A stretch of 59,891 bases of DNA from a virus. The translations under genes were made by a program, and so were the position numbers. The notes under the pieces are model-generated. The model was not told where the DNA came from, made no database searches, and saw only the letters and a program-made list of their open reading frames with translations. Shown piece by piece: positions 4,748 to 59,891 of this stretch (position 1 is its first letter; every line of letters begins with the position of its first letter). Where the stretch lies: IMG/VR virus record IMGVR_UViG_3300006111_000001. One strand, 5' to 3'.

Positions 4748-5492
4748 AATTGGATCGAAGGTTAAAAGCGGACGTGGACCCTAAAATGGTGTCCCCGGAA
4801 TAAGGCGTCACAGCGATATTGTAGGTTTGAGCCGTGCCAATTTCGTCAGTAACGGTAATTTTGTTCCAGATATAAGTGGACGTGCATTGGTAAAGATTTT
4901 CGGTCTTGTTTGAAGCCGTGGCACTTTTCCAAGCAATCGTGCTTAGAGACGGAATTGCGGTATCCGTTGACCCAGATGTGATTTGGCGCCCCACATTGGC
5001 CGTTGACGTTGTGGTGGACACGGATAGTGAATTAATCTGGCTTTGAAGCTGTTGAGTGATATAGGTTAGGTAATCTAACCCGCCCTCAATCGCCTTAAAT
5101 GTCGGCCCCTGGTTGGAAATCGACACCGTTTGAACCAAAGGAACCACACGCGAAATCGTGATGTAATATCCCGCCGATAATGGCGATCCGGTTAAGGGAT
5201 AAGTGACCGTCCCGCCAATGCTTCCAACCCCTGTCAGGGTGTATTGGCTTGGCGTTAATGTGGTCAAAGTGTTGGGAGTGACATTGGTATTTAATACTGT
5301 GATGACCGCATCCCCAGCCGACACCATGGGGAAATTATAGGTGAACGAGGTTGTAACCCCATTTCCTTGCGCCGTGGTCGAACTTGACGTGGTTGAAACG
5401 GTCGAAAATACCGGGTCCGCAATCAGTCCCAGTACAACAAAGACCAGAATTTTAAACACGGCGGACAAGCGCATTTGCACCTTTTCCGCCAA
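4695..5492 (-). CDS. S/T-rich structural protein (fibre module)
   Basis: 265 aa; hydrophobic N-terminal segment then Ser/Thr-rich sequence; start may be the TTG at 5492 or the internal ATG (MRLSAVFK). Confidence 0.4.
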   Translation of the reverse strand: MAEKVQMRLSAVFKILVFVVLGLIADPVFSTVSTTSSSTTAQGNGVTTSFTYNFPMVSAGDAVITVLNTNVTPNTLTTLTPSQYTLTGVGSIGGTVTYPLTGSPLSAGYYITISRVVPLVQTVSISNQGPTFKAIEGGLDYLTYITQQLQSQINSLSVSTTTSTANVGRQITSGSTDTAIPSLSTIAWKSATASNKTENLYQCTSTYIWNKITVTDEIGTAQTYNIAVTPYSGDTILGSTSAFNLRSNFASATLQCDGAGNWFVQ

Positions 5493-5566
5493 GGGATGTT
5501 ATGGCCGACGCATCTTTGCGCTCTTGCCTAAGACTTCTTTAACCCGACGCAGCGGTTAAGGTCTAG

Positions 5567-8500
5567 CTATTCGCCATTCCTAGCCCGCATTTTATCTTCC
5601 ATTGCACCTTTGATAATGTCGTTTGGCCCCCCGACACTTTGAGCCGCAATCATATTTGCCGCAGCCGTCCGGCTGGATGAAATCGTTTTGGTGATGGTTT
5701 CCGCCCGGATATTCTTGGGGATTTGCTGCCAGCCCGGATTTTGAACCAAAGCGTTTAATCGCATTTTGGCTAACCGGCCCGCCGTCTGGGCATATTGGTC
5801 ATATTGCTCATCGGTCAAATCCTGCCCTCGGATTGACCGGCGCAATTTCCCAACCCCCAGACCCAAGGCGTTCATTTCCTTAACCACCGAATCATTGGCA
5901 TAACGATCCGCCGTGCCACTTTGCGGGATTGGTTCGCCAAACATATCTCGTTTGGGCAATAGGCCAATTGAGACAAACGGCACCTTGGCCTTGGCGGCAT
6001 CCAATAAGGTCCGCGCTTCGCGTTGATACGGATCGACCGCGTGAGCCACTTGACTCATGCCAACGCTAAACGGCATCCAATTGATGACCATCCCTCGAAT
6101 ATAGCTTTCGCCATATTCTTCCGGATGAAACACCGCATTCAGCATGTCAGACAATCCTTTCATAAAGGTTTCATCCAACACCGCTTTATTAAACCCTTCA
6201 AACGCCGCTTTGGCTAAAACCGTGCCATCTTCACCATCCCAGCCATGCGCGGCTTCGGTCATATTGGCCCCAAACCGCATAAGCATGGCAAACGGCCCCA
6301 GACGGTCATAGGCCACCGACACATCGCCAATGGTAATGTGATTGGGTTTATTGGCCATCAGCCACACACGGCGCTCATTGGGATCAGCAGGGCCATCCCC
6401 GGTCATCAACCCATTTAAGGTCATCATGACGGATGTACCGATTAAAGCCGTGCCGGTGGCGATTTTGCCAAATTGCATGTCTTGAGCAGACCCGCCGTTT
6501 TGCCCGGACAAATTGCCGCGCACGTCCCTATCCAATAAGCCAATGGGCGAGCGTTCAATAAATGCTTCGCGGGTTATTTGGGTGCCAATTTTCATAAACG
6601 GCACAATGATTTTTGCCGCTAGGTTTGAATTGGCCGCAGCTGTTAATTTCCCTGAAAACGAATTGTAATCCGCAGGCGCCATGAATAATTCTTTCATGGC
6701 ATCCGCACTTGCAGCAATCATCATTTCCGGTGTCGGCTTTTGAGTTAATTCCGCAACCCGTCCTTTGAACGCATCCCCGGTCAAACCATCATTCATGGCT
6801 TCCCGATAGGCCAAAGATTGAATGTTTTGCTCATATCGCAGGGATTTAAAAAACGAGTGAATGGCCGCAACCGATTTGGACGGCACATTGATAATTTCGC
6901 CAACCTTGCCCGGAATGGCCCGCGTGTTCATATCGGTAAAATGACCAGATACCTTTTCCCCAGGCAATGCAGGGGAAATGCCGGTTTTAAACGCTTGCGT
7001 TGCCGCCATTAAGCCATCGGATGATCCCTTCATCATGCCGTATAATTGCGCGCCCGCCTCACCTAAATAAACTCGATTTTTGACCTCATAGCCCAAAGCC
7101 TCGCGCGCCGCGCCGACCGCAGACGCCACCGGAATTTCGATCAAAGGACGCGCCAAGGCATTTAACGCATTGCCCACCGAATACCGGGCATGGGTTATCG
7201 GCCCCGAAATCAAAGCATTAACGTAATATTCCAATATGGCGTTTTTGATCGACCCACGGGCGGAATCATTAACAAACTTGGCCACTTGTCCCGGCGTTTG
7301 CAGGTTCATCCCAAATTGCGCTTCTTGCCTTAGTTGTTCCGGTGTCCGGCCAATGGTGCTTTGGAAGAATTGCGCCAACGCTTCGGCATCCGCCGACCCT
7401 TCCAGCTTACGGAATGCTCCCAACGCCCGGCCAGCTTCCGCCGTAATCCCCGCCACTTGCTCTTGAATCATCAAGTGACGTTGCCGCGCTTTGGCATAGG
7501 CCATCACATCGGCATCCGATCCATTGGCCGCTTTTGCCATCAAATCACGCACTTCCGTCGCAGATTGAATTAACAGCTTTCGAGCCGCAAGGATTTGTTC
7601 GGCGTTGAACGCTTCCCCGATCCGGCGCCAATTGAGTTTTGCCGCATTCATGCCCAAAGCATCGGCCAGGTCCAATTGTTCCCCGGCAGAAATCACGCCC
7701 CGCCGTGCGGCCATGAAATCTTCATTATCCGCCGCCGTTTGACGCAAAACTTCTTTTACATCTTCCGGTGTATTGAGATTATCTAACCGGATATTCCCGG
7801 CCTTATCTACAAGGTCTGATTCATCGGTTGCGAACCGCTCATTGGGTCCGGCTGGGTATTCTGTCTTGCTCCCATTAGACCTAGTGCTGCGTCCGCGTGA
7901 TCCGCTGCTTTCTTGAACATCGACCGCACCTCCTCCGGCAGGTCCTGATTGCCCGCCATCATCCGCGCTCTTGATCGGCCCTCTAGCAGATTCTTCCGCC
8001 CGGTATTCATTTTCCAAATCCTCCTCGGTGCGCGGATTGTCGTAATCCGGCACGTTATCACCTTCCCAAGCATCGCCTTTGGCTTCTAAATGAGACTTGG
8101 CCCATTCTTCCGCGTGGCGCAATTCGCGCTCAAAATCCGCTTCCTGAGAATGAATTTCCTTTAATTGTTCTTCGGTTGACATGCGGCTGGCAACTTCATT
8201 CCAGAACTCGCTATGCGACATGCCGTCCGCTTTAATGCCCAATTCCCCGGCAATTCGATCCACTTCGGAATTGTGGTTTAAAGCATCCTGATAGGCTTTA
8301 ACCTTGTCATAATCAAAATCGGAGAATTGATGGTCCCCGTTTACGTCACGGGTTAGCTTTTCCAAAAATTGATTAATCGTGGGACGTTCACCGCCCAATT
8401 CAGGGAAAAACCCGGCTTCTTCCGCCGCTTGCGCCACCCGGTCAATATCTTTGCCCGTTTTGCGCAGCACCCCGCCATTACGCTTGCCACCAAACAATGC

Positions 8501-11047
8501 CGCAATATCGCCCCGATCATTGCCAATTCCGCCATAAGATCGAACAAAATCGGTTAGCGTCGAAGGGCGCGCAGGAACCTTGGAATAAAGCTTTTGCTTT
8601 GAACTAGGGCCAAATTTTAGGTTTGACTCTTGTGGTGGTCCAATGCCTTCAACCTTAGCTTGACCTCCGCCCGCGCCGACCGTTCCAGATTTTTGTATAG
8701 CGCCATTTGTTCCGGTGTCAGGTCCGGACGCATTGACGCCACTGTCAGCACCTTCACTTCGTGCCGGGCTTTCGCCAGGTCCGTTTCCAATTCTTCCAGG
8801 CTGTAATTCATCCGAAATCTCCGAAGCATGTTCATCAGCTACCGCGTGACGCTCATCACGCACCCTATCGCCAACGACCTTTGCTTGGTTCCCCGGCGTG
8901 TGTTCCGCATCGCCTTCATGCAGCGTTGCAAAATCAGCCCCCAAAGCACGATCCGGCGCTATTGTAACCTTTTCCGGGTTGGTTGACAAAAGCCTATCGA
9001 ACACGTCCCGAATATCGTCATTGATAGGCGATTTCAGCCGGGTCACGGTTTCATAAATCTTGGTCAGCCATTGTTTAAATTGATCAAACACCCGCGCTAG
9101 GGTTTGGCTTGGCGCGCGGCCTTCCATCAAATAACGTTCAAACCCGCGCGCAAACTTTTCATGCGCCCGCGTCGGTATGGCCTCATCCTCGCTAACCCCA
9201 AGCCATTTACGCACCGTTGCAGCATCCGCCTTAATTTGATCCGGTGCAGCCTCATGAACGGCATCGGCCATCATTTCTTCTAGAAACTTATGGCCGGTTT
9301 CATGGATAAAAGTTGACGCATCGGCGCCCTTGAACAGTTTGATAATTGTCTTATTTTCCCGGAATTGAACAGAACCCCGCTTGGCTTGCTCATATTCCTT
9401 GGCCGTGATTTCCGGCGCTTGATCCTTTTTTTGCGCCATTTCCCGCACACGTTCGCGCGCGGCTTGGATGACGGCCCCATCCCGGTTAAACAATTCCAAC
9501 GGCGATCCCAGCTTGCCGCCCATGCGCGCCGCCCGTGTTTCATACCTTGCCGCGATTAATTGAGCAGCGGCTTCCGCTTCATCCCTTGGCCGTCCGGCAT
9601 CTTCCAATTGACGCGCGACCCTAGAGGCAATTTGCGCCTTTTGTTGTTCAATCGGCAATTCTGTTTTGGCCGGTGTCTCGTCAGGCTTTACACCCTCCGC
9701 CGCAGGTTCACCCGGTTTAGTCTCGACCGGCTTGGCCGTTTCAGTGACCGTTTCATTTTTCGGTTGCGCAGTTTCCGTTTCACCTTGCTCCCGGCCCTGA
9801 ACGCGCGCCTCATCAACGGCTTGCTCGACTTCCGGTGCGGCTTCTTGCGGCATACGCTCTTGCGCTTCCCGATATGCTTTTGTCACATCCGGCGCTAAAT
9901 CGCGCATTTTATAATCATTTTCTTGCAGCACGCGGCGGATGCGCGCCATGTCCGGCGAATCCAGCTTGGCCGTGCTTTCAATTTCGTCCAATTGATCCCG
10001 CAAATCAGATAACCGGCCCGCTTGACGTTTGGTCAAACGATCTTCGACACCATTAACCTTGGCTAAAATATCGTCAATTTCGCTATTGATTGATTTTACA
10101 TCTTCCCGGTTAGCGTGTGCTTCATCGCGCGTTTCCGACAGCTCATTGAGCCATTTGCGATAGGTATCGCGCCGCGCCACCAAAGCATCGTATTTTTCAA
10201 ACGTATCGGGATCAATTTGACGCGCAATAGAATGAATATCCGGCTGTGCTTCTTGCGTTGTGGCTTGAACCGGCGTTGCCTCCGGTGTCGCTTGAGCCTC
10301 CGCCCCAGCCGCCCCTTGTTCGGCAAGCTGATCTTCTAACGGTTTGACACTGGATTTTAAATCATCCGCCAATGCACCATCGGCCAATGGTTCAGGTTCT
10401 TTCAGTCCAAAATAAACCGCGTCATCCCCGCCAATGACTTTGTTCTTAATGGCATCATTCCAAAACTTTGCCGGTGCCGGATGAAACTTTGACCCAAATG
10501 GAAAGCCCATGGCTTCCATGTCCATAATGCCCGTTACGTCCCGTCCCAGCTTATTCAAGCCAAACACGCCACCCGTTGCATTATTGGCTTCTTCACCCGC
10601 CTGAACGATACCCGCTTGGACGCCGCTATACCCCGCCGCACCTACTCTTAAAGCTGCATTTGCCGCCATGACCGCAGGGCGCATGAACGTATCATTAAAC
10701 CCACCCATGAAACTGGGTTTTTTGGGATCGTTAAACCAACCCAGTTTTTTAAAGAAATCTTCGCTTTCCGGAGACAACGCCATTCCTTCCCAGCCGGTTT
10801 TTACGCCGCCCACAAAAGCATCAGTAATCCTGCCTTCCGGTGTCCCCTTGAACCATTGATTAAATTGGTCAGACGTATTGGCTAAAGGCTGAATAGGCGG
10901 CACTTTTGGCAGACGCGCATCAACACCCGGATAAAATGGCCCAGGTTGAGCAGGCGCATGCTGATCCAGCAATGAATCAACGTCCATTGACTGATTCGGC
11001 GCATGCGCATCCAATAAATCATCGACAGATGACGGCTGATCGGTCAT
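5567..11047 (-). CDS. Giant internal virion/ejection protein (T7 gp16-like position), polyvalent, with HExxH zincin-like motif
   Basis: 1826 aa; last gene of a gp11-gp16-like series. Contains a long acidic, probably coiled region (aa ~220-500) and the motif ...ASTFIHETGHKFLEEMM... (HExxH, codons ~9290..9304). Confidence 0.5.
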   Translation of the reverse strand: MTDQPSSVDDLLDAHAPNQSMDVDSLLDQHAPAQPGPFYPGVDARLPKVPPIQPLANTSDQFNQWFKGTPEGRITDAFVGGVKTGWEGMALSPESEDFFKKLGWFNDPKKPSFMGGFNDTFMRPAVMAANAALRVGAAGYSGVQAGIVQAGEEANNATGGVFGLNKLGRDVTGIMDMEAMGFPFGSKFHPAPAKFWNDAIKNKVIGGDDAVYFGLKEPEPLADGALADDLKSSVKPLEDQLAEQGAAGAEAQATPEATPVQATTQEAQPDIHSIARQIDPDTFEKYDALVARRDTYRKWLNELSETRDEAHANREDVKSINSEIDDILAKVNGVEDRLTKRQAGRLSDLRDQLDEIESTAKLDSPDMARIRRVLQENDYKMRDLAPDVTKAYREAQERMPQEAAPEVEQAVDEARVQGREQGETETAQPKNETVTETAKPVETKPGEPAAEGVKPDETPAKTELPIEQQKAQIASRVARQLEDAGRPRDEAEAAAQLIAARYETRAARMGGKLGSPLELFNRDGAVIQAARERVREMAQKKDQAPEITAKEYEQAKRGSVQFRENKTIIKLFKGADASTFIHETGHKFLEEMMADAVHEAAPDQIKADAATVRKWLGVSEDEAIPTRAHEKFARGFERYLMEGRAPSQTLARVFDQFKQWLTKIYETVTRLKSPINDDIRDVFDRLLSTNPEKVTIAPDRALGADFATLHEGDAEHTPGNQAKVVGDRVRDERHAVADEHASEISDELQPGRIGNGPGESPARSEGADSGVNASGPDTGTNGAIQKSGTVGAGGGQAKVEGIGPPQESNLKFGPSSKQKLYSKVPARPSTLTDFVRSYGGIGNDRGDIAALFGGKRNGGVLRKTGKDIDRVAQAAEEAGFFPELGGERPTINQFLEKLTRDVNGDHQFSDFDYDKVKAYQDALNHNSEVDRIAGELGIKADGMSHSEFWNEVASRMSTEEQLKEIHSQEADFERELRHAEEWAKSHLEAKGDAWEGDNVPDYDNPRTEEDLENEYRAEESARGPIKSADDGGQSGPAGGGAVDVQESSGSRGRSTRSNGSKTEYPAGPNERFATDESDLVDKAGNIRLDNLNTPEDVKEVLRQTAADNEDFMAARRGVISAGEQLDLADALGMNAAKLNWRRIGEAFNAEQILAARKLLIQSATEVRDLMAKAANGSDADVMAYAKARQRHLMIQEQVAGITAEAGRALGAFRKLEGSADAEALAQFFQSTIGRTPEQLRQEAQFGMNLQTPGQVAKFVNDSARGSIKNAILEYYVNALISGPITHARYSVGNALNALARPLIEIPVASAVGAAREALGYEVKNRVYLGEAGAQLYGMMKGSSDGLMAATQAFKTGISPALPGEKVSGHFTDMNTRAIPGKVGEIINVPSKSVAAIHSFFKSLRYEQNIQSLAYREAMNDGLTGDAFKGRVAELTQKPTPEMMIAASADAMKELFMAPADYNSFSGKLTAAANSNLAAKIIVPFMKIGTQITREAFIERSPIGLLDRDVRGNLSGQNGGSAQDMQFGKIATGTALIGTSVMMTLNGLMTGDGPADPNERRVWLMANKPNHITIGDVSVAYDRLGPFAMLMRFGANMTEAAHGWDGEDGTVLAKAAFEGFNKAVLDETFMKGLSDMLNAVFHPEEYGESYIRGMVINWMPFSVGMSQVAHAVDPYQREARTLLDAAKAKVPFVSIGLLPKRDMFGEPIPQSGTADRYANDSVVKEMNALGLGVGKLRRSIRGQDLTDEQYDQYAQTAGRLAKMRLNALVQNPGWQQIPKNIRAETITKTISSSRTAAANMIAAQSVGGPNDIIKGAMEDKMRARNGE

Positions 11048-34845: not shown

Positions 34846-35406
34846 TTACCCAAACCTCCGCCCGACAAATTCCGCATGCCGCTTAAATGACCGCTCCCGC
34901 TTCTTATCCAAAGGAAAATAAGCAATGGCAGCGTGATCCGCGCAATATGGCTTATTCGATAACTTTGCGTCTTGGCAGTAACGCCAAACATTATCTTGCG
35001 GCCCCGGATTGCCATAGACCCAGCAGCACCCGCACGGTTCTTTAACACCCTCACCGGCCACAACATCACCCCACGCCGGATCAATCGGCAGTGATTTAGA
35101 TACCAAGCGCGGCTTCATTGGTTCAGTGACCAGCCTGGGCATCCGCAGCCCTTTAAACCCCATCACGCGCTTTGCATGTGCCTTGGCCTTTGGCTTTTGT
35201 TCGACCGGCTCCTGATCCGCCCCCTTGGCATTTGACAGCTTAAGCCCCAACCGCCGCAATTGCCCCATAACTGCATTGCGCGTGATATGCCATCCAGCCG
35301 CCTCCGAAGCAATTAAAGCAATCTGGCTGGACGATGCCCCAGGAGTTTTTTCCCAAGCCTCTCGAATGTATTTGCGCGAGTCCGAAATCTGAATGGCGTT
35401 TCTCAT
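34846..35406 (-). CDS. GcrA-like cell-cycle regulator homolog
   Basis: 186 aa; N-terminal …SSSQIALIASEAAGWHITRNAVMGQLRRLGLKL matches the GcrA N-terminal DNA-binding pattern; C-terminal …CGCCWVYGNPGPQDNVWRYCQDAKLSNKPYCADHAAIAY matches the GcrA C-terminal Cys/His pattern. Confidence 0.7.
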   Translation of the reverse strand: MRNAIQISDSRKYIREAWEKTPGASSSQIALIASEAAGWHITRNAVMGQLRRLGLKLSNAKGADQEPVEQKPKAKAHAKRVMGFKGLRMPRLVTEPMKPRLVSKSLPIDPAWGDVVAGEGVKEPCGCCWVYGNPGPQDNVWRYCQDAKLSNKPYCADHAAIAYFPLDKKRERSFKRHAEFVGRRFG

Positions 35407-36771: not shown

Positions 36772-37032
36772 TCAACCCGCCTTCCGGTTACGCTTGCGCG
36801 TGCCGCGCAGGTGCATAATTGACGTGTGATCCCGATTTAATAATCGCCCCATTTGTGCGCACGACAACCCCAGCGGGGCCATCGCCATTACAGCAGCCCG
36901 ACGAGCCGCAACCAATTCACGAAACCGAGCCTCGCCTTTAATTTCATCAATGGTAAACCCATGGGATTTAGCCACTTCTGCAATGACATACCGGCCACGC
37001 TCAAAACTGTTAATGTGCTCAGGAATAATCAT
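36772..37032 (-). CDS. DnaA domain IV-like HTH protein
   Basis: 86 aa; …AARRAAVMAMAPLGLSCAQMGRLLNRDHTSIMHLRG… resembles the DnaA C-terminal DNA-binding signature (…RDHTTV…). Confidence 0.55.
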   Translation of the reverse strand: MIIPEHINSFERGRYVIAEVAKSHGFTIDEIKGEARFRELVAARRAAVMAMAPLGLSCAQMGRLLNRDHTSIMHLRGTRKRNRKAG

Positions 37033-37907
37033 GCGGCATCCCCAAATAAATTTGATTGCCGATCAACGGAATCCAAATACCGGCACGCCTGGCGCCAATA
37101 AGCCTCTTTCAGTTCCGTGCCAATAAACTTTCGGCCTAGCTTGAGAGACATATACCCCTCAGATCCAATCCCCATAAATGGGCTCAAAACCACATCCCCG
37201 GCATTGCTCCACATAATCAAGGCCCGCTCAATCACATCAAGCTGCAATGGACACAAATGGCGCTCATCATTATGTTCCCGCGCCATGTGGACGTTCAAAA
37301 CATTGGATTGGTTGACAGTCATCCATACCGGGCTGGCCCATTCCTGCCATTGTTCAACGGGGAAATCTTCCGGCGTATGAGTGATAGGATCAGCATTCTC
37401 GCCCGGTTTCACAAACGTCAAAAGGTAATCGGGCATCCCGCCGCGACTTTTGGCGCTGTCTTTTTTTAGCTGCTTATAAAGCAAGCCGACATGCTTTGTA
37501 CGGGTCATTTCCGTGACAGGGCATTTCCAGATCGTGCGCCGTGAATGCAAAATCCATCCTTCCGCCTCATGAGCACGAATAATTTGCCCGCTGAAATCCT
37601 TGATCCCAACCGCGCCATCTTTCCATTTAGTCATCGGGAGATCGGAGCAATGAACGGCAGTCAGCCGCCCAGGTTTGGTTACACGGAATTTTTCGCGCAC
37701 CAAAAATTGATAATGGGCTGCAAATTCTTCATCAGTAGAATTGCCCATATCGGCGGCACTGGTCGAATAAACAAACAGCGATCCGAAAGGCGGCGAATAG
37801 ACCGAAAAATCAATGCTTTCGCTCGGTAACTGGCTTATGACGCTAACGCAGTCTCCGTTGAACGCCGCAAACCGCTCGCCGTGGTATTCGTTGTCGCAGT
37901 CAACCAT
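37029..37907 (-). CDS. DNA methyltransferase, N4/N6 class (beta permutation; SPPF motif)
   Basis: 292 aa; catalytic motif IV as …DFSVYSPPFG… precedes an AdoMet motif I-like …DVVLSPFMGIGSEG…; SPPF/SPPY is commonest in N4-cytosine enzymes but does not fix specificity. Confidence 0.7.
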   Translation of the reverse strand: MVDCDNEYHGERFAAFNGDCVSVISQLPSESIDFSVYSPPFGSLFVYSTSAADMGNSTDEEFAAHYQFLVREKFRVTKPGRLTAVHCSDLPMTKWKDGAVGIKDFSGQIIRAHEAEGWILHSRRTIWKCPVTEMTRTKHVGLLYKQLKKDSAKSRGGMPDYLLTFVKPGENADPITHTPEDFPVEQWQEWASPVWMTVNQSNVLNVHMAREHNDERHLCPLQLDVIERALIMWSNAGDVVLSPFMGIGSEGYMSLKLGRKFIGTELKEAYWRQACRYLDSVDRQSNLFGDAA

Positions 37908-39466: not shown

Positions 39467-40654
39467 TCATGCCGCCGCCCTCACATCCATATATGCACCT
39501 ATGAACTCTGCCGCTGCTTGCGGGACAATCGCGTTACCGAAGCCGCGCAACATACCCACTCGGTTGGGTAGCCCATCAACCAAGAGACAAATTCCGGGTT
39601 TAACTGGCCTGGCTTTTCCGTCGATCCCGACAATCCGTTCTGCATCGGCCCAATAATTGCCGCTTGAACGTTCAACGCTTGGCTGTTGCGTTCGAATTGT
39701 GACGGCCCCGCGTTGTTTTTGGCGTCGTTCGTTGTCGGCGTCGACCAATAAACCATAGACGGAAGCGTCATGCTCCCCGATCCGTATTTCTGGTTCGGTC
39801 CGCCCTTGTCGCCGTCTGTCGCTTTGGGCGTCGACCAAAGCGCCGGCACATGATCCTGCAAATTGACCTGGTGCCCCGATTGTATCCGGGCTGCCGCTTT
39901 GTCCGGGTCCGTATAGTCCCCGCCGCCCTTCTCGCGCACTTGCGGCGTCGCCCAAAGCGCCGTCGTCTGGCGCAACAACAAGCCCCCTTGTAAATTCGGT
40001 TGAAGCTGCGCGCCCGTCCCGTCGTTCGCCCGAGGCGTCGGCCAAAGTGCTTGGATCGTATTCTGTAGCGTCACTGTTGCTTTTGAGCCGTCCGGCCGGA
40101 CCCCTGTCGGCGTCGTACCGGGAGGATTGCTTTGCCCGCCGCTCGGAGTTGTGGGCGTGGGCCACAAAGAACAATCGGTCGCGGCGGTGCGGCGCGCCGA
40201 CGGCACAAGCCGGAATAATCGCCGCCCCAACGGCGTAATCAAGTCCTTCAAGATCATTGGCGACATTGTCGAGCCATGATTGACCAACCGCTGCCGCAAC
40301 CTGTTCGCCAAACAGGTTTGAAGGTCGACACTCGCCGACGAGCCGAAACAATTCCGGCCAGAGGTGACGCTTGTCGTCGACCCCTTGCCGCTTTCCCGCG
40401 ACACTGAAGGGCTGGCATGGTGGCGAGCCGGTCCAGACGGGACGGTCGACCGGCCATCCGGCAAGTCTAAGAGCCTCGGCCCATCCCCCGATTCCGGCGA
40501 AGAAATGGACTTGGTCGAATCCGACAAGGTCGGCGCCGGTGACGTCGCAAATAGATCGAATGTCGACGAATCCATCTGGAATCAATCCTTGTTTGATTAG
40601 CTCGCGCAACCAAGCAGCGGCAAACGGATCGTTTTCGTTGTAATAAGCCGTCAT
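39467..40654 (-). CDS. DNA (cytosine-5) methyltransferase; conserved motifs split between two reading frames
   Basis: 395-aa frame carries motif I (FFAGIGG), motif IV (GSPPCQPFSVAG), motif VI (FGEQV), motif VIII-like (RRDRLFFV) and C-terminal motif X-like (GNAIVPQAAAEFI). The overlapping frame 39499..40575 carries five LW(P/A/S)TP repeats and a motif IX-like LMGYPTEW. Confidence 0.65.
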   Translation of the reverse strand: MTAYYNENDPFAAAWLRELIKQGLIPDGFVDIRSICDVTGADLVGFDQVHFFAGIGGWAEALRLAGWPVDRPVWTGSPPCQPFSVAGKRQGVDDKRHLWPELFRLVGECRPSNLFGEQVAAAVGQSWLDNVANDLEGLDYAVGAAIIPACAVGAPHRRDRLFFVAHAHNSERRAKQSSRYDADRGPAGRLKSNSDATEYDPSTLADASGERRDGRAASTEFTRGLVVAPDDGALGDAASAREGRRGLYGPGQSGSPDTIGAPGQFAGSCAGALVDAQSDRRRQGRTEPEIRIGEHDASVYGLLVDADNERRQKQRGAVTIRTQQPSVERSSGNYWADAERIVGIDGKARPVKPGICLLVDGLPNRVGMLRGFGNAIVPQAAAEFIGAYMDVRAAA

Positions 40655-41082
40655 GCCGCCACCGCATCCAATTCAAATGCTTCGATGGTTACTTTGACCT
40701 TGGGCTTATCCGCCCAATGCCGCCGCACGGTCAGCCAAATGATTTGCTTGTCATCTTGGTACACAACGCCGTTAAGAGCATCGCAAACCGCCTTGGCGAC
40801 ATTATCCAGATCGACCCGATGAATCGGTGCAAACGTCCCTTTTAAAGCCGCATTGCGTTGACGTGCTGGCCAAGATTTAGGAGGCACGACAAACACATTG
40901 ATGGTCGCCGCTATGGCATTGCCAACCGGATCATCTTTGAACACGGCGCGCGCCGCCCATTGAACGGCTTGCTCATATTCAACCGTCTTGGCGGGAGTAT
41001 AAACATGACCCTGTTTGGTCATGCGCGGACGCTGTTTGCCGACCGGCTCCCCGCCAATTTCAAATGTCGCCAAGTGACGCAT
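40651..41082 (-). CDS. rusA: RusA-family Holliday junction resolvase
   Basis: 143 aa; …EIGGEPVGKQRPRMTKQGHVYTP… and overall RusA pattern. Confidence 0.8.
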   Translation of the reverse strand: MRHLATFEIGGEPVGKQRPRMTKQGHVYTPAKTVEYEQAVQWAARAVFKDDPVGNAIAATINVFVVPPKSWPARQRNAALKGTFAPIHRVDLDNVAKAVCDALNGVVYQDDKQIIWLTVRRHWADKPKVKVTIEAFELDAVAA

Positions 41083-41450
41083 CAGGCCGCAACACGCTTT
41101 AATGCGGCTTCACCCAACGGAGTGGTGGCAAGCATGCCCAAAGCGTTCAAATACAATTCCAGCTTTGCTTCTTCTTCATCGCGCTGCGCTTTGTCTTTTT
41201 TGCGAAGCGCAATGACCTTGCGGATGATTTTGGTTTCAAACCCGTGAGCAGCCGCCTCCGCGTACACATCCTTAATGTCCCCAGCCAGCTCTGCCTTCTC
41301 GGTTTCAAGGCGCTCAATCCGCTCCACTATTGACTGCAATTGTCCGTTTGAAATTGTCATTCTCAATCTCCAAAAAGGCCAGGGCCAAAGCCCCGGCAAG
41401 TTGAGGGAGGTACGCCCGTGTGGGCCTGTTGAGCAGGTAAAAACCCGCAA
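41082..41450 (-). CDS. gapR: GapR-like (DUF2312) nucleoid-associated protein
   Basis: 122 aa; …QLQSIVERIERLETEKAELAGDIKDVYAEAAAHGFETKIIRKVIALRKKDKAQRDEEEAKLELYLNALGM closely follows the Caulobacter GapR/DUF2312 sequence. Confidence 0.8.
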   Translation of the reverse strand: MRVFTCSTGPHGRTSLNLPGLWPWPFWRLRMTISNGQLQSIVERIERLETEKAELAGDIKDVYAEAAAHGFETKIIRKVIALRKKDKAQRDEEEAKLELYLNALGMLATTPLGEAALKRVAA

Positions 41451-42125: not shown

Positions 42126-42374
42126 CTAGCCAGCATTACGCACCTCATCATTTTGAGATTGCGGCAATGGCACCAAAAAAATGTCTGGCCTTAATTCGCA
42201 CCGGGAAATACCGGTTGCCCTTTCAATGGCCAACGCATTTTCGGCTGAAATCTTGGTTGAACGATTAACCCATGCCCAAATGGACGGCTGTTTGACCCCA
42301 ATGGCGCGGGCCAAGGCGTTTTGTCCACCGGCAATCTCTAATGCGCGTTGCAGCGCGGTTATAGGCGTGTTCAT
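42126..42374 (-). CDS. Cro-like HTH regulator
   Basis: Divergent from the CI-like gene. Track ORF begins at TTG 42410; the ATG at 42374 (MNTPITALQRALEIAGGQNALARAIGVKQPSIWAWVNRS…) is the more likely start. Confidence 0.55.
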   Translation of the reverse strand: MNTPITALQRALEIAGGQNALARAIGVKQPSIWAWVNRSTKISAENALAIERATGISRCELRPDIFLVPLPQSQNDEVRNAG

Positions 42375-42457
42375 AGGTTTGTCTATATAGGCAAACCAAA
42401 GCCGCGTCAATAGTGGATGCTATTGGAAAAATGAGTTTTTTTAATTAATGTGCGGAC
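42375..42457. promoter_or_regulatory. Divergent cI/cro-like switch region with operator-like palindromes
   Basis: Near-perfect palindrome GGTTTGtcTATATAggCAAACC (42375..42398) abutting the cro-like ATG; inverted repeat CAATAG-N6-CTATTG (42408..42425); candidate -35/-10 hexamers on both strands. Confidence 0.45.
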
Positions 42458-43120
42458 ATGGAAACTTTAGGTAAACGAGTGCGCGCCCGTCGCGCTGATT
42501 TAAAATTGTCTCAAGCGGAACTTGCCAGCCGCGTGGGCATATCTCAGCCGTCTTTATCAGCCATTGAAAATGACGAGACTCAAGGCACCACCAAAATATT
42601 AAAGCTGGCAGAAGTATTGGAATGTGACCCCAATTGGCTTTTGATGGGCAATAAACTAAAGTTTAGCGTCCCCAACAAACTTACAACTTATAAAAATAAT
42701 CCTGTTGCAAACGAATCAGTTTTTACTACCATCAATATGGGCAAAAGAGACTTACCTATTAGAGGTCTGGCTCAAGGGGGTGATGGGGTGCTAACATTTG
42801 ACCAAGACGCAATAGATTATACTTTTCGTCCATCTAATTTAGTCGGCATAGATGAAGCGTTTGCGCTTTATGTTACCGGCGACTCCATGGGCGAAGTCTT
42901 GATCCCAGGCACTTTGTTATTGGTTCACCCCAAACAAGAACCAAAAATTATGGATTTTGTCGTTATTGAAAAAATTGACCGATCCGTAATCGTTAAACGA
43001 TTGGTTCGCAGATCGGCCAATAGCGTCACCTTGCGCGAATACGACCCGCCCAATGATTTTGTGCTTTCTCGCAGCGAAATTCGAATGATGTTGCGGGTTT
43101 GCGGGACGGCCATGGAATGA
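42458..43120 (+). CDS. CI-like repressor (HTH_XRE plus S24 LexA-like peptidase domain)
   Basis: 220 aa; N-terminal …LKLSQAELASRVGISQPSLSAIENDET… HTH; C-terminal …FALYVTGDSMGEVLIPGTLLLVHP…VIVKRL… with Ser and Lys catalytic-dyad context. Confidence 0.8.
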   Translation: METLGKRVRARRADLKLSQAELASRVGISQPSLSAIENDETQGTTKILKLAEVLECDPNWLLMGNKLKFSVPNKLTTYKNNPVANESVFTTINMGKRDLPIRGLAQGGDGVLTFDQDAIDYTFRPSNLVGIDEAFALYVTGDSMGEVLIPGTLLLVHPKQEPKIMDFVVIEKIDRSVIVKRLVRRSANSVTLREYDPPNDFVLSRSEIRMMLRVCGTAME

Positions 43121-43443
43121 AACGGCTTGCCGCACTCTTTATACTAGGAGCATGCGCCAGCCCTCAGCTGGCCACACCCCAACAAAAAAACGAGGCAATC
43201 AAAACCTGGTTTGATTGCATGACTATAAAAGCCGTGCAATTCGACGACCACCAATCCGATGCCGGATCAATCGCTTTGGGCATTATGGGGCTTTGCCACA
43301 CGGATTTTATGGAAAGCGTGCGTTTACAATTAACCGGCACATCCCCAGCCCTTCAAACCAATCTTAAGGCCAAGCTTTTAAACGATGAACTGCCAATGGC
43401 AACCAGCGTCGTTTTAACGGTGCGATCCCCTCAAAAACGCTAA
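43117..43443 (+). CDS. Lipoprotein (possible superinfection-exclusion protein)
   Basis: MKRLAALFILGACASPQ lipobox-like signal (…LGAC); immediately downstream of the CI-like gene with ATGA overlap. The track ORF starts 18 nt upstream at 43099. Confidence 0.5.
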   Translation: MKRLAALFILGACASPQLATPQQKNEAIKTWFDCMTIKAVQFDDHQSDAGSIALGIMGLCHTDFMESVRLQLTGTSPALQTNLKAKLLNDELPMATSVVLTVRSPQKR

Positions 43444-43848: not shown

Positions 43849-44174
43849 TGCGCTACGAAACCCTATTCACGCTTAAAAGCGATGACATTGAAATCGAATA
43901 CGAAATCAATGTTGATTACGAGCATAATGAAGCATACGGCGGCGGTTGGTCAGAACCCCGCGTGCCGGAGCATTGCGACATTATCAGAGTTACCGGCAGA
44001 GCATATCTGCAAGGCGGCAGAAACCCGATCATGGGCCAACCGTTTGATTTTATGCCCCTACTGTCAGCAAGCGCACTTCAAAGCCTAGCGGACGCTTGTT
44101 TAAACGATCACAACGGCATGATTGCGGACGCCATGGAAATGCGCGCTCTGGAACGCCGTGATGCAGCGGAGTAA
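43848..44174 (+). CDS. Hypothetical protein
   Basis: 108 aa; ATG overlaps upstream stop. Confidence 0.4.
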
Positions 44175-44179
44175 TTACT

Positions 44180-44740
44180 ATGCTATTCACAATCCCTTTC
44201 CGTTCATGGACTGGCAAAGCCGCATTTGAGGTCGAGATCGCCGACGATGTTGAACCGCGCTTTCAAATGCGCGCTGCCTTGTCGGTTGTGATCGGCAAAG
44301 CCAAAGAAAAGGGCGAACGTGCCAATCTCAGCCGTGCCGATCTCAGCGGTGCCGATCTCAGCGGTGCCTATCTCAGCGGTGCCGATCTCAGCGGTGCCTA
44401 TCTCAGCGGTGCCAATCTCAGCGGTGCCGATCTCAGCGGTGCCGATCTCAGCGGTGCCTATCTCAGCGGTGCCGATCTCAGCGGTGCCTATCTCAGCCGT
44501 GCTAAAGGTGCATTTTCGCTTGGAACGCCGGATGGTTGGTCGGCTGTTGCTTGGCTGCGCGACGGTTTCTTATCGATCCGCGTCGGTTGCCGAGATAAGC
44601 GGTTAGATGAAGCCCGCGCATATTGGGCCAATAAAAATGACCGGTGCGAAGTTATGGCGGCGCTGGATTACGCTGAAATAATTGCGCGCCTTCGTGGTTG
44701 GGCCATTGAAGCACCGGCTGAACAAGTGGCAGCGGAGTAA
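44180..44740 (+). CDS. Pentapeptide-repeat protein
   Basis: 186 aa; central run of ~12 consecutive pentapeptides A(D/N/Y)LSG ([25 protein letters not shown]…) flanked by unique N- and C-terminal segments. Confidence 0.75.
44327..44503 (+). repeat. Tandem 15-bp repeat (~11.8 copies) encoding the pentapeptide repeats
   Basis: Near-identical units ctcagcggtgccgat / ctcagcggtgcctat / ctcagcggtgccaat in head-to-tail array. Confidence 0.9.
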
Positions 44741-44746
44741 TTTACC

Positions 44747-44896
44747 ATGGAAATCGAACACCTTTGCGAAATATGCGACGAGCGGATTGGAAAACAAGAC
44801 ACCGAGTCAGGCTTTTGGCTTGGCGACCGCGCGCCGTTTATTTGCGACGTGTGCAATATTGATTTGGCCGAACGCCAAATGGCAGGTGAACAATGA
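44747..44896 (+). CDS. Small CxxC…CxxC zinc-ribbon-like protein
   Basis: 49 aa (MEIEHLCEICDERIGKQDTESGFWLGDRAPFICDVCNIDLAERQMAGEQ); stop overlaps next start (ATGA). Not in ORF track. Confidence 0.35.
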   Translation: MEIEHLCEICDERIGKQDTESGFWLGDRAPFICDVCNIDLAERQMAGEQ

Positions 44897-45238: not shown

Positions 45239-46375
45239 TTGCGCAGCCATTATGGGAGCAAAGAAATGAACGCGCCCACCAAACTTCACGCTTTGCCCAA
45301 AGCGGGATTCGCGCCAGGTATTTATTTTAACCTGCCCGAAAATGAATACCGTGCGGACCCCAGCCTATCCGCGTCAGGCATTAAAAGCTTGATCCGATCA
45401 CCTTTTGATTATTGGTGCGATTGTCTGGACCCCACGCGGGAAGATGACCAAACCGAAGCCAAAGACAAAGGCAAAGCATATCACAAAATGCTTTTGGAAG
45501 GCATTGCGGCTTTCGATGCGACCTACGTGGTAGCGCCAACCATTGAAAATTATCCGGACGCATTGCCGGATGGATCAGCGTTAAAAGCTTGGTTGAAAGA
45601 TCAGGGCGCAAAACAGACGGGCACTAATGCCGAACTGTATCAGCTCGCCCTTGAAATCAACCCTGCCCTAGAATTTTGGCCAGATATTCGCGCCAAATGG
45701 AAAGCCGATCACATGGATTGTGAAGCGGTATCCCGCGAGACTTGGACAGAGCTGCAACGCGCCCGCATGGTTTTATCCCGCATGGACAGCGCCAAACGTG
45801 CATTTACGGGCGGCATGTCGGAGGTTTCAATTTTTTGGGTGCATGAATCCGGCGTCCCGATGAAGGCCCGGATCGACTATTTAAAACCCAGCGCCATAGT
45901 GGACCTAAAGACCTTTGCCAACAAAATGGGCAAAGACTTGCGGTCAGCCGTGGTTAGCGAGATTTCAAACAACCGCTATGAAATCCAAGCCGCTGTCTAT
46001 CTGGACGGCATTAAAACCATCAAGGCTCTATTCAAAGCCGGGAAGCTGGCAATTGTTGGGGATCATGACCCCGAATGGCTTGAAAAGGTCATGGCGACCG
46101 ACCGGCATAGGTTCTTTTTTGCTTTTCTGCAAACTGGTCGCTGTCCCAATTTTATTATTCGTGAATTTGCCGAATTTGACACCTTTGCTGGATTGGGTGC
46201 CCAGGCTAACGAATATTTTTCAATCGGTCGCATGGCCTACAAGCACGGCATCGAGCAATGGGCGCGATATATGCGGACTTTTGGCCCCGATGAACCATGG
46301 GTGACTGACTACGAAATCCAACCTTTCCGCGATGACGAGTTTCCAGTGTGGGTGCTCCAAAGAGGTGTCCAATGA
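45239..46375 (+). CDS. PD-(D/E)XK-family nuclease (recombination exonuclease candidate)
   Basis: 378 aa; …MKARIDYLKPSAIVDLKTFANK… fits the D…(D/E)xK catalytic arrangement; sits upstream of the ATPase and SSB. Confidence 0.55.
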   Translation: MRSHYGSKEMNAPTKLHALPKAGFAPGIYFNLPENEYRADPSLSASGIKSLIRSPFDYWCDCLDPTREDDQTEAKDKGKAYHKMLLEGIAAFDATYVVAPTIENYPDALPDGSALKAWLKDQGAKQTGTNAELYQLALEINPALEFWPDIRAKWKADHMDCEAVSRETWTELQRARMVLSRMDSAKRAFTGGMSEVSIFWVHESGVPMKARIDYLKPSAIVDLKTFANKMGKDLRSAVVSEISNNRYEIQAAVYLDGIKTIKALFKAGKLAIVGDHDPEWLEKVMATDRHRFFFAFLQTGRCPNFIIREFAEFDTFAGLGAQANEYFSIGRMAYKHGIEQWARYMRTFGPDEPWVTDYEIQPFRDDEFPVWVLQRGVQ

Positions 46376-47316
46376 CCGTGATGAAATTTACCCAAGCGAT
46401 CCGCAAAGCCACCCGCCCGCTCATTGCCATTGGTGGACCATCAGGCAGCGGAAAAACTTATGGTGCTCTTTTAATGGCGCGAGGCATTGCCGGACCCAAA
46501 GGCAAGATTATTGTCTTGGACACCGAGAACGGTCGAAGCCAAATGTATGCCGATGATCCGACAATTGGCGGGTTTATCGTGGGAGATATGTATCCGCCGT
46601 TTACCAGTGCATCATTTATTGACGCCATCGACGCCGCTGAAAATGCCGGAGCTGACTGCATTGTGATCGACAGTATGACCATGGAGTGGTCCGGCACAGG
46701 CGGATGTATCGAGCAAGCCGAGGAAATGGCAAAGCCCGGCCCCCAAGCATGGATTAAACCAAAGCGCAACCACGCTCGAATGATGAATCGCATTCTCCGT
46801 TGTCAAGTGCCGGTCATTTTTACCCTTCGCGCAAAGCCAGAATTGCTAACGGTCAAAAACGCCCAAGGCAAAGACACGTTCATTAAGGGCGAAATGATTT
46901 GCGAACAGGAATCCCGTTTCATTTATGAAATGACCCTTGCTTGCCTTTGTGATTACCAGACCAACAAAGCATATTATTCCAAGCTGAAAAACCTACCAAA
47001 GCCCTTAACCGGCGTTTTAAAAGACGGCGATCTAATCACCGTTGATACAGGACGGATCATTAAAGAATGGGTATCCACTGGACAGGCAGTCGATACCGCC
47101 CTTGAACGGTCCAAGGCTTTAATGATTGAAGCCGCCCAGCAAGGTTTAATTGCCTTTGCGGATTGCTGGAAACATACCCCCAAAGAACACCAGCGGCTTT
47201 TGGCCGATGAAAAAGACCGGCTCAAAATTGTGGCGCAAACCGTTGACGCGCTACACGCTGAAAATGAACCAGAGCCAACCGAACCGAAAGATGACGGTTT
47301 AGGGGAGGCCGCATAA
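46348..47316 (+). CDS. RecA-like/AAA ATPase (AAA_24 / Sak4-like recombination ATPase candidate)
   Basis: 322 aa; Walker A (GGPSGSGKT), Walker B-like (DCIVIDSMT); real start may be the ATG near 46373. Confidence 0.6.
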   Translation: MGAPKRCPMTVMKFTQAIRKATRPLIAIGGPSGSGKTYGALLMARGIAGPKGKIIVLDTENGRSQMYADDPTIGGFIVGDMYPPFTSASFIDAIDAAENAGADCIVIDSMTMEWSGTGGCIEQAEEMAKPGPQAWIKPKRNHARMMNRILRCQVPVIFTLRAKPELLTVKNAQGKDTFIKGEMICEQESRFIYEMTLACLCDYQTNKAYYSKLKNLPKPLTGVLKDGDLITVDTGRIIKEWVSTGQAVDTALERSKALMIEAAQQGLIAFADCWKHTPKEHQRLLADEKDRLKIVAQTVDALHAENEPEPTEPKDDGLGEAA

Positions 47317-47777
47317 TGGCCGGATCAGTCAATAAATGCATCATCCTTGGTCATTTGGGCGCAGACCCCGAATGCCGCCACACGCAATCAGGTGACTTGA
47401 TTGTAAACTTGCGGGTTGCCACATCGGAATCATGGCGGGATAAAAATTCAGGTGAACGCCGCGAGAAAACCGAGTGGCATCGTGTTGTAATTTTTAACGA
47501 TGCCTTGGGCAAGGTCGCGCAGCAATACCTCAAGAAAGGCGCGAAAGTCTATCTTGAAGGCCAATTGCAGACCCGCAAATGGGTCGATCAAGGCGGCACT
47601 GAACGATATTCAACCGAGATCGTTTTGGCACGGTTTAAAGGCGAATTGACCATGCTGGATGGTGCTAGAGCATCAAATCGAGAACCAGGCGAGGATGATT
47701 ACAATCAGGACGAACGCCCAGCCTCATCATATCGTGCGCCACAAAACAGCGATATGGATGATGAAATCCCATTTTGA
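47316..47777 (+). CDS. ssb: Single-stranded DNA-binding protein
   Basis: 153 aa; OB-fold SSB pattern (…NKCIILGHLGADPECRHTQSGDLIVNLRVATSESWRDK…EWHRVVIF…) and acidic C-terminal tail …DMDDEIPF. Confidence 0.85.
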   Translation: MAGSVNKCIILGHLGADPECRHTQSGDLIVNLRVATSESWRDKNSGERREKTEWHRVVIFNDALGKVAQQYLKKGAKVYLEGQLQTRKWVDQGGTERYSTEIVLARFKGELTMLDGARASNREPGEDDYNQDERPASSYRAPQNSDMDDEIPF

Positions 47778-59771: not shown

Positions 59772-59891
59772 TCAGATTGATATAGGTTGACGTGGAAACG
59801 GTCGGAGTCGCCGTCAACGTATCGCCGCTTTTCAAAAACAAATATGGATTTCCATAATTGTCCAATGGCAAACCCTGCCAAGTTGCAGAAT
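59772..59891. repeat. Terminal direct repeat, right copy (identical to 1..120)
   Basis: Exact 120-nt match to window start; implies a unit genome of ~59771 bp. Confidence 0.9.

Follow-up and report, generated by a model that had tools for sequence, protein, structure and literature searches.

An unnamed family of phage pentapeptide-repeat proteins with a length-variable beta-helix and a possible role in host interaction

The viral DNA analysed here (IMG/VR record IMGVR_UViG_3300006111_000001, a stretch of 59,891 nucleotides referred to below as the window) encodes, at positions 44180..44740, a pentapeptide-repeat protein of 186 amino acids. The protein belongs to an unnamed, modular and length-hypervariable family within the known class of pentapeptide-repeat proteins, and its C-terminal domain is undescribed. 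On the basis of a structural model, it is a three-part accessory protein of a temperate phage, with a cap, a short acidic right-handed quadrilateral (Rfr) beta-helix and a conserved alpha/beta domain of ~70 residues at its C-terminus. From the position of the gene and the way in which its repeats evolve, we tentatively infer an early-expressed host-interaction or counter-defence protein with a helix of evolvable length, as opposed to a topoisomerase protector of the Qnr/MfpA type.

Pentapeptide-repeat genes are frequent in phage genomes, yet nearly all of them are without an assigned role. Matches to the protein described here were present in 463 of 50,697 phage records.

Protein architecture and predicted fold

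The gene is a complete open reading frame (ORF), which is divided as follows.

44180..44740, + strand: complete ORF of the pentapeptide-repeat protein; ATG start, 186 amino acids, stop codon at 44738-44740
44180..44317, + strand: N-terminal cap, residues 1-46; modelled by AlphaFold2 as a beta-hairpin (2-7, 14-19) and a helix (26-43)
44318..44497, + strand: 12 pentapeptide units, residues 47-106; predicted three-coil right-handed quadrilateral beta-helix
44498..44737, + strand: segment of the ORF 3′ of the units, up to the stop codon

The first-pass annotation of this DNA had read the ORF as a pentapeptide-repeat gene, and a match to Pfam family PF00805 (100.6 bits against a cut-off of 20.2, E=3.1e-29) confirms it. 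Structure prediction, proposed by the same annotation as a check, yielded a quadrilateral beta-helix. With an alignment of 35 sequences as input, AlphaFold2 produced a model with a mean predicted local distance difference test (pLDDT) score of 90.1, in which approximately residues 47-110 form a regular beta-solenoid, with pLDDT at 90-95 per 10-residue block across residues 41-110. The 12 units make three coils of predicted helix; the 6-unit allele described below would make 1.5. In a Foldseek comparison with the PDB, the top matches were all pentapeptide-repeat structures (Np275/276, HetL, Rfr23, designed solenoids and MfpA), and the best superpositions, including those on NP275/276 and MfpA, had root-mean-square deviations of 1.0-1.2 Å over 64 residues. 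On this evidence, the objection that no beta-helix is formed fails and the assignment of the fold holds. The predicted helix is acidic (isoelectric point 4.05, net charge -4), and the whole protein has an isoelectric point of 5.0 and a net charge of only -4.

Both end domains are shared with relatives. The cap aligns with their 'FEIKHRFTGAVLF...' type, for which the consensus is M-x-F-E-I-K-H-R-F-T-G-x-V-L-F. The C-terminal domain (residues 111-171) is modelled as four strands and two helices, and its invariant positions are G, P, W, G-C, R, W, K, R-E-V, A-A, Y, E, R and W. An informative name for this domain is absent from Pfam, NCBIfam, PHROGs and PADLOC, and a sequence profile search of the PDB gave a single match at chance level (E=0.8).

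A modular family of variable length

When the C-terminal profile was run with HMMER against 1.84 billion representatives, 651 clusters, defined at 50% identity, were recovered at E<=1e-3; a stricter limit of E<=1e-10 leaves 184. Almost all of the matches are proteins of 50-300 amino acids with the domain at or near the C-terminus, and the family was encountered in this analysis exclusively in phage-like contexts.

Across relatives, the number of units between the conserved end domains ranges from 0 to 26. At least three units are present in ~87% of 177 members, and members with 0-2 units also occur (P0138, for example). Proteins with near-identical end domains may differ widely in unit count, with ~19-20 in P0006, ~18 in P0007, 5-6 in P0121 and ~5 in P0124, or with 4 in L017 against 24 in L020. 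The same type of cap and array is joined elsewhere to other C-terminal domains, such as DUF5758. In four further proteins (P0200, P0239, P0303 and P0367) the C-terminal domain is fused to a cysteine-rich tandem repeat of three residues (CTGCTDCTD...) and not to pentapeptides. The family is therefore modular.

The repeat array and its evolution

The DNA that encodes the helix is the strongest repeat of the window. Tandem Repeats Finder placed an array at 44319..44502 with a period of 15, 12.3 copies, 93% matches, no indels and a score of 312, the runner-up array of the window scoring 73. In codon phase, it comprises 12 units of the form A(D/N/Y)LS(G/R). Units differ from one another at two nucleotides only: codon 2 starts with G, A or T (for D, N or Y), and codon 5 starts with G or C (for G or R). 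All 266 of 266 pairs of codons for the same amino acid within the array are identical. The array also has a higher-order structure, being a duplication of a 90-bp block (2 x 90 bp) whose two copies are 98% identical. The first-pass annotation had placed ~11.8 units at 44327..44503; the array is real and its 12 units agree closely with this count, but the borders were off by a few bases and the 90-bp duplication had been missed.

44319..44408, + strand: 90-bp super-unit 1, with units N D D Y D Y
44409..44498, + strand: 90-bp super-unit 2, 98% identical to super-unit 1

Two other readings of the array were rejected. An ORF in an alternative frame (44319..44606, with 'PISAV' repeats) is a by-product of the stop-free repeat. 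A target of a diversity-generating retroelement was also considered; within the window the array sequence matches itself alone, its variable bases are G/A/T and G/C, and a reverse transcriptase was not searched for systematically.

Homogeneity at the DNA level recurs across the family. Identity between same-amino-acid codons within an array is 100% in the window and in L008, L010 and L011, and 99% in Caulobacter phage RW. Among IMG/VR arrays, a value could be computed for 32, and 20 of these reached 1.00; a few arrays are older and more diverged (0.70-0.88). The codon sets, on the other hand, are lineage-specific, with GCC-xAT-CTC-AGC-GGT in the window, GCG-xAC-CTC-xxT-GGC in L008 and GCC-xAT-CTG-TCG-GGC in L011. 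Homogeneous arrays with lineage-specific codons point to repeated, independent and recent expansion or homogenisation, in agreement with the recent expansion that had been proposed from the near-identity of the units.

The differences that do exist between units are mostly nonsynonymous, and they fall at outward-facing positions (i-1, which is D/N/Y/H, together with i+1 and i+2); residues i-1, i+1 and i+2 face outwards in the Rfr fold. Changes were counted along minimum spanning trees of distinct unit types in 26 lineage groups. Of the steps, 61 were synonymous and 266 nonsynonymous, whereas 28.6% would be synonymous under neutrality (binomial P=2.4e-5), in a crude test in which the trees are approximate, transition/transversion bias is ignored and some lineages are pooled. 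Nucleotide 4 of the unit, the first base of the i-1 codon, takes 90 of the 327 steps. To the extent that so crude a test on sequences can indicate it, the direction of unit changes is opposite to that of ordinary purifying selection.

Length variation and assembly error

The identical 186-residue protein (P0001) is encoded on seven metagenome contigs. A shorter form of 156 residues with six units (P0002) is encoded on two contigs from other assemblies, L001 and L002 (ENA ERZ27272006 and JGI 3300006113), and this allele carries exactly one 90-bp block. Its flanks are identical to the window over 20 kb in L001 and 7 kb in L002, the lone mismatch of each BLAST segment being at the borders of the repeat. 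The junction TATCTCAGCGGTGCCAATCTCAGCGG is found in the long form of the array only.

Assembly has demonstrably been difficult here. In sample 3300004685, one contig ends and another starts inside the array (L052 and L014), and L019 and L033 begin within their own arrays. P0055 runs out of its array into the peptide CLLYTSPSPRD, which is presumably a translated Nextera adapter, so that it is probably an adapter chimera. The warning of the first-pass annotation that such an array risks collapse was therefore justified. Because contigs break within the array and the flanks lack a marker single-nucleotide polymorphism (SNP), the difference between six and 12 units may itself reflect assembly collapse.

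Two lines of evidence speak for genuine variation. A third allele, P0240, has the units N D D Y N Y, in which an N unit is directly followed by a Y unit; this junction is missing from the 12-unit array, and simple collapse cannot therefore yield P0240. The second comes from isolate genomes. Among Rheinheimera Barba phages (L012, which is Barba25S, compared with 115 related records), most records that cover the 1.2 kb surrounding a related pentapeptide gene share 97-100% identity there, and the spans of the region differ by -15, -30, -45, -60, -105, -120 or -180 bp, all of them multiples of the 15-bp unit. We conclude that unit-number polymorphism is probably real; the six-versus-12 case in the present phage is left unproven by the different short-read assemblies. 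The copy-number variation that the first-pass annotation had considered likely agrees with the 12 and six units of different assemblies of the same phage.

Further observations concern the Barba phages and the borders of the gene. In Barba31A and barba_12-9G, 41% of the 1.2-kb query was matched, in two pieces spanning 414 bp, and the sequences suggest that the pentapeptide gene is missing from both. The Barba25S gene itself (L012, 2279-2896) encodes a C-terminal strand-strand-'IGC'-helix motif that resembles the present domain by eye. In the window, the pentapeptide gene is bracketed by a perfect 14-nucleotide direct repeat.

44163..44176, + strand: direct repeat GCAGCGGAGTAATT, left copy, just upstream of the pentapeptide gene
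44729..44742, + strand: direct repeat GCAGCGGAGTAATT, right copy, where the gene ends at its 3′ side, ahead of the ORF starting at 44747

The two matches compare with a chance expectation of 0.03. Each copy of GCAGCGGAGTAATT consists of the last codons (AAE) and stop of one ORF together with the likely ribosome-binding site of the next. This bracketing is compatible with cassette-like gain and loss of the pentapeptide gene, and the repeat may mark a cassette boundary. The exact left-junction 30-mer had zero matches in metagenome_contigs, and in a promoter and terminator scan sites were not more numerous than in shuffled sequence.

A serious rival to the counter-defence interpretation arises from these data, namely that the repeat is largely neutral: function would reside in the end domains, the array would be tolerated as a self-expanding insert of drifting length, and some of the apparent variation would be short-read assembly error. 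We judge this unlikely on balance, but it accounts well for the members with 0-2 units, the contigs that break in the array, the probable chimera P0055 and the six- and 12-unit forms without a flanking marker SNP. It also fits published experience with such a repeat in Vibrio phage 24, which was hard to assemble and required polymerase chain reaction (PCR) and Sanger sequencing (bioRxiv 10.1101/2024.07.02.601686). It is less easily reconciled with the retention of three or more units in most members, with the excess of nonsynonymous changes at outward-facing positions, with P0240, or with the stepwise length differences between Barba isolate genomes.

Genomic context

Nucleotides 1-120 of the window are identical to nucleotides 59772-59891, and the window is therefore a circular or terminally overlapping assembly that represents a complete phage genome of ~59,771 bp. 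The phage is temperate, with genes for an integrase, a resolvase, a CI-like S24 repressor and a Cro/YdaS-like protein. The features surrounding the pentapeptide gene are as follows.

42126-42410, - strand: Cro/YdaS-like gene, divergent
42458..43120, + strand: CI-like repressor (helix-turn-helix and S24 peptidase), upstream of the pentapeptide gene
43099-43443, + strand: lipoprotein-like ORF, starting with the lipobox-like MKRLAALFILGAC (by reading) and followed by a 207-bp gap
44747-44896, + strand: zinc-ribbon-like ORF of 49 amino acids with two CxxC pairs (CEIC...CDVC)
45239-46375, + strand: PD-(D/E)XK exonuclease, downstream in a tightly packed gene string
46348-47316, + strand: Sak4-like AAA_24 protein of the recombination module
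47316-47777, + strand: SSB of the recombination module (45239..47777)

The order on the + strand is thus CI, the lipoprotein-like ORF, two small ORFs, the pentapeptide gene, two small ORFs, exo, Sak4 and SSB, with the integrase further downstream. The pentapeptide gene lies in the early operon, between the CI/Cro switch and exo/Sak4/SSB. In phage lambda the genes are ordered cI-rex-pL-...-gam-bet-exo-int, and the gene order of the window is collinear with this. The lipoprotein-like ORF, for which a family match was not found, occupies the spot of prophage exclusion genes such as lambda rex. The zinc-ribbon-like ORF has a weak PADLOC match to a Cas8b model (E=2.6e-4) that is probably due to chance.

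Among relatives, those in L008, L010 and L011 adjoin a Cro-like gene and lie upstream of YqaJ or ERF. More distant members are found in long strings of small, unannotated ORFs on the same strand that are typical of early accessory regions, one of them with a PDDEXK nuclease and GapR nearby. A tblastn comparison of recombination and immunity proteins with 34 IMG/VR loci was too insensitive for context to be quantified. In L010, a gene with an Acb2/Tad1 hairpin domain (10440-10703), of the anti-CBASS/Thoeris sponge family, lies in the same early operon ~4 kb downstream of the pentapeptide gene.

According to the Pfam tags of the genes of L003 (window positions 34180-54740), the - strand of the phage also encodes, at 34846-35406, 41082-41360, 36772-37748 and 39467-40654, homologues of GcrA and GapR, a DnaA C-terminal-like protein and methyltransferases of the N6/N4 and C5 types. 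GcrA and GapR suggest that the host is an alphaproteobacterium, with whose cell cycle the phage may interfere.

Candidate function and alternatives

The suggestion of the first-pass annotation that the protein is a host-takeover or anti-defence factor is plausible, and draws on where the gene lies, on how its repeats evolve and on a single published precedent. Four observations suggest such a host-interaction or counter-defence role: the gene is located in the early operon, surface-changing substitutions are in excess, units turn over rapidly, and a pentapeptide-repeat protein of Vibrio phage 24, 24_60, is a counter-defence factor against Sucellos (bioRxiv 10.1101/2024.07.02.601686). A conserved but unnamed domain, arrays rebuilt in each lineage and amino-acid changes on the exposed face form a pattern that is typical of a host-virus arms race.

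In the mechanism that we propose, unequal recombination or replication slippage between in-register 15-bp units would add or remove whole units in frame, possibly with the aid of the adjoining exo/Sak4/SSB system of the phage. The helix would thereby be lengthened or shortened and the protein would otherwise remain intact. Docking on a host target would fall to the conserved C-terminal domain; the beta-helix, acidic and evolvable, would provide a surface for binding or decoy on which arms-race selection acts. As the helix is short, its length unconstrained and the end domains conserved, the C-terminal domain is more likely to be the specific binding element. A broader and rather doubtful extension is that the family constitutes an uncharacterised class of phage counter-defence factors, in which a conserved docking domain is combined with a helix that is retuned by turnover of 15-bp units and diversifying selection. 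If so, phages could track variable host sensors or nucleases, for example RexAB-like abortive infection (Vibrio phage 24 report).

Several observations weigh against a counter-defence role. The six- and 12-unit forms derive from different short-read assemblies, and their flanks are without an independent SNP. Only about half of the examined contexts show the link to recombination genes, and a blastp comparison of four neighbouring small ORFs with the neighbours in L005, L008, L010 and L011 revealed no conserved partner gene. Net charge per unit ranges among relatives from -1.0 to +0.5, so that some arrays are net-neutral or basic and an acidic decoy surface is not universal. PADLOC gave zero families for the pentapeptide protein at E<=0.01, and the selection test, as noted, is crude. 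Moreover, 24_60 belongs to another phage and host.

The collinearity with lambda also raises the possibility of a Gam-like DNA-end mimic, which would block host RecBCD/AddAB and so shield the exo/Sak4/SSB recombination and rolling-circle replication of the phage. The position upstream of YqaJ or ERF in L008, L010 and L011 is the same, and the acidic surface of the helix would suit such a role. We nevertheless consider it improbable: the protein lacks sequence or fold similarity to Gam, Abc2 and gp5.9, about half of the more distant members lie away from recombination genes, and the free number of units, zero included, speaks against the helix itself as the part that inhibits. Relatives of DNA mimics of the Ocr, ArdA or Gam type were found in none of Pfam, the PHROG annotations and the PDB.

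The first-pass annotation had proposed a gyrase-binding DNA mimic like Qnr or MfpA; while the host is being taken over, the beta-helix of such a protein would sit in the saddle by which gyrase or topoisomerase IV binds DNA. MfpA and Qnr have ~8-10 coils per subunit and form a dimer of ~100 Å, and the usual rise of the Rfr fold is 4.8 Å per coil. The present helix, with three coils and ~15 Å, is about a third as long, and the C-terminal end of the protein is a distinct conserved domain and not a dimerising helix. A model that needs a long rod of fixed size is a poor fit to three coils and to relatives with 0-26 units. The protein does share the pentapeptide fold and an acidic helix with Qnr and MfpA, and it gives weak matches to their NCBIfam models, but these are far below the cut-offs (31.3 bits against 240 for Qnr, 25.4 against 360 for MfpA), as are those to all Qnr subfamilies; phage gyrase inhibitors of other kinds exist (PMC10886550). 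Taken together, this makes a mimic of the Qnr/MfpA type very unlikely, and we do not retain the proposal.

A role of the array as DNA, whether as a set of iterons, as a protein-binding array or as a cluster of GATC sites, with an incidental ORF, is extremely improbable, for although the twelve 15-bp units are phased and each of the six D units contains GATC, with the G of GATC as the variable base, relatives conserve the protein and not the DNA, their codon sets differ and many lack GATC, the ORF is intact between conserved flanking domains, and the replication genes are on the other arm, on which grounds the iteron reading was rejected.

With counter-defence as the reading that we tentatively favour, the family is a candidate for anti-defence screens. 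Arrays of this kind are also sites at which short-read phage assemblies break or misreport length.

Comparison with known systems

The closest structural parallels are Rfr proteins of PF00805 such as Nostoc Np275/Np276, HetL and Rfr23, with which the present protein has in common A(D/N)LXX units and the predicted quadrilateral beta-helix. It differs from them in having only three coils, in units that are unusually perfect in both DNA and protein, and in being flanked by a phage-type cap and by a C-terminal domain without a Pfam model. Scores against HetL, PipB and the other NCBIfam pentapeptide equivalogs were likewise far below their cut-offs.

Qnr, MfpA, AlbG and McbG are proposed DNA mimics. 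The fold class and an acidic surface are shared with these proteins, whereas the number of units is unconserved among relatives of the present protein and there is no context of gyrase genes or of quinolone or toxin resistance.

Phage proteins of the DUF5758 type (PF19062), which were found by the same searches, have a like plan, with a similar cap, a variable array and a C-terminal domain. The last of these differs, as PF19062 gave no match at E<=1 to the present protein or to its C-terminal 78 amino acids, whereas P0004 and P0029 match it strongly. An hhalign comparison of the C-terminal profile with one DUF5758 protein was uninformative, and the library of papers searched contained none that mentions DUF5758 and none of relevance on pentapeptide variation in Rheinheimera phages. 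A gene of the DUF5758 type once occurs 1.4 kb from a member of the present family. On contig L051, two pentapeptide genes lie 0.5 kb apart (3626-4492 and 5001-5618), of which one ends in DUF5758 and the other in the C-terminal domain of the present family, in surroundings that include dNTP-hydrolase-like genes, GapR and a PDDEXK nuclease.

The functional precedent, 24_60, acquired gain-of-function or escape changes, Y112R and N115D, within its repeats (bioRxiv 10.1101/2024.07.02.601686). These Y-to-R and N-to-D changes involve residue types that also vary in the present array.

At the level of DNA, the array resembles coding repeats of the variable-number tandem repeat type and bacterial contingency loci in its near-identical tandem units and in a probable unit-number polymorphism between otherwise identical genomes. 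The term contingency locus, used in the first-pass annotation, does not apply in its strict sense: the 15-bp unit is in frame, and the 12- and 6-unit alleles are both full-length. Because the unit is a multiple of three inside an ORF, slippage changes the length of the protein and does not toggle its expression, so that, in place of the on/off switching of contingency loci, unit turnover alters protein length and surface.
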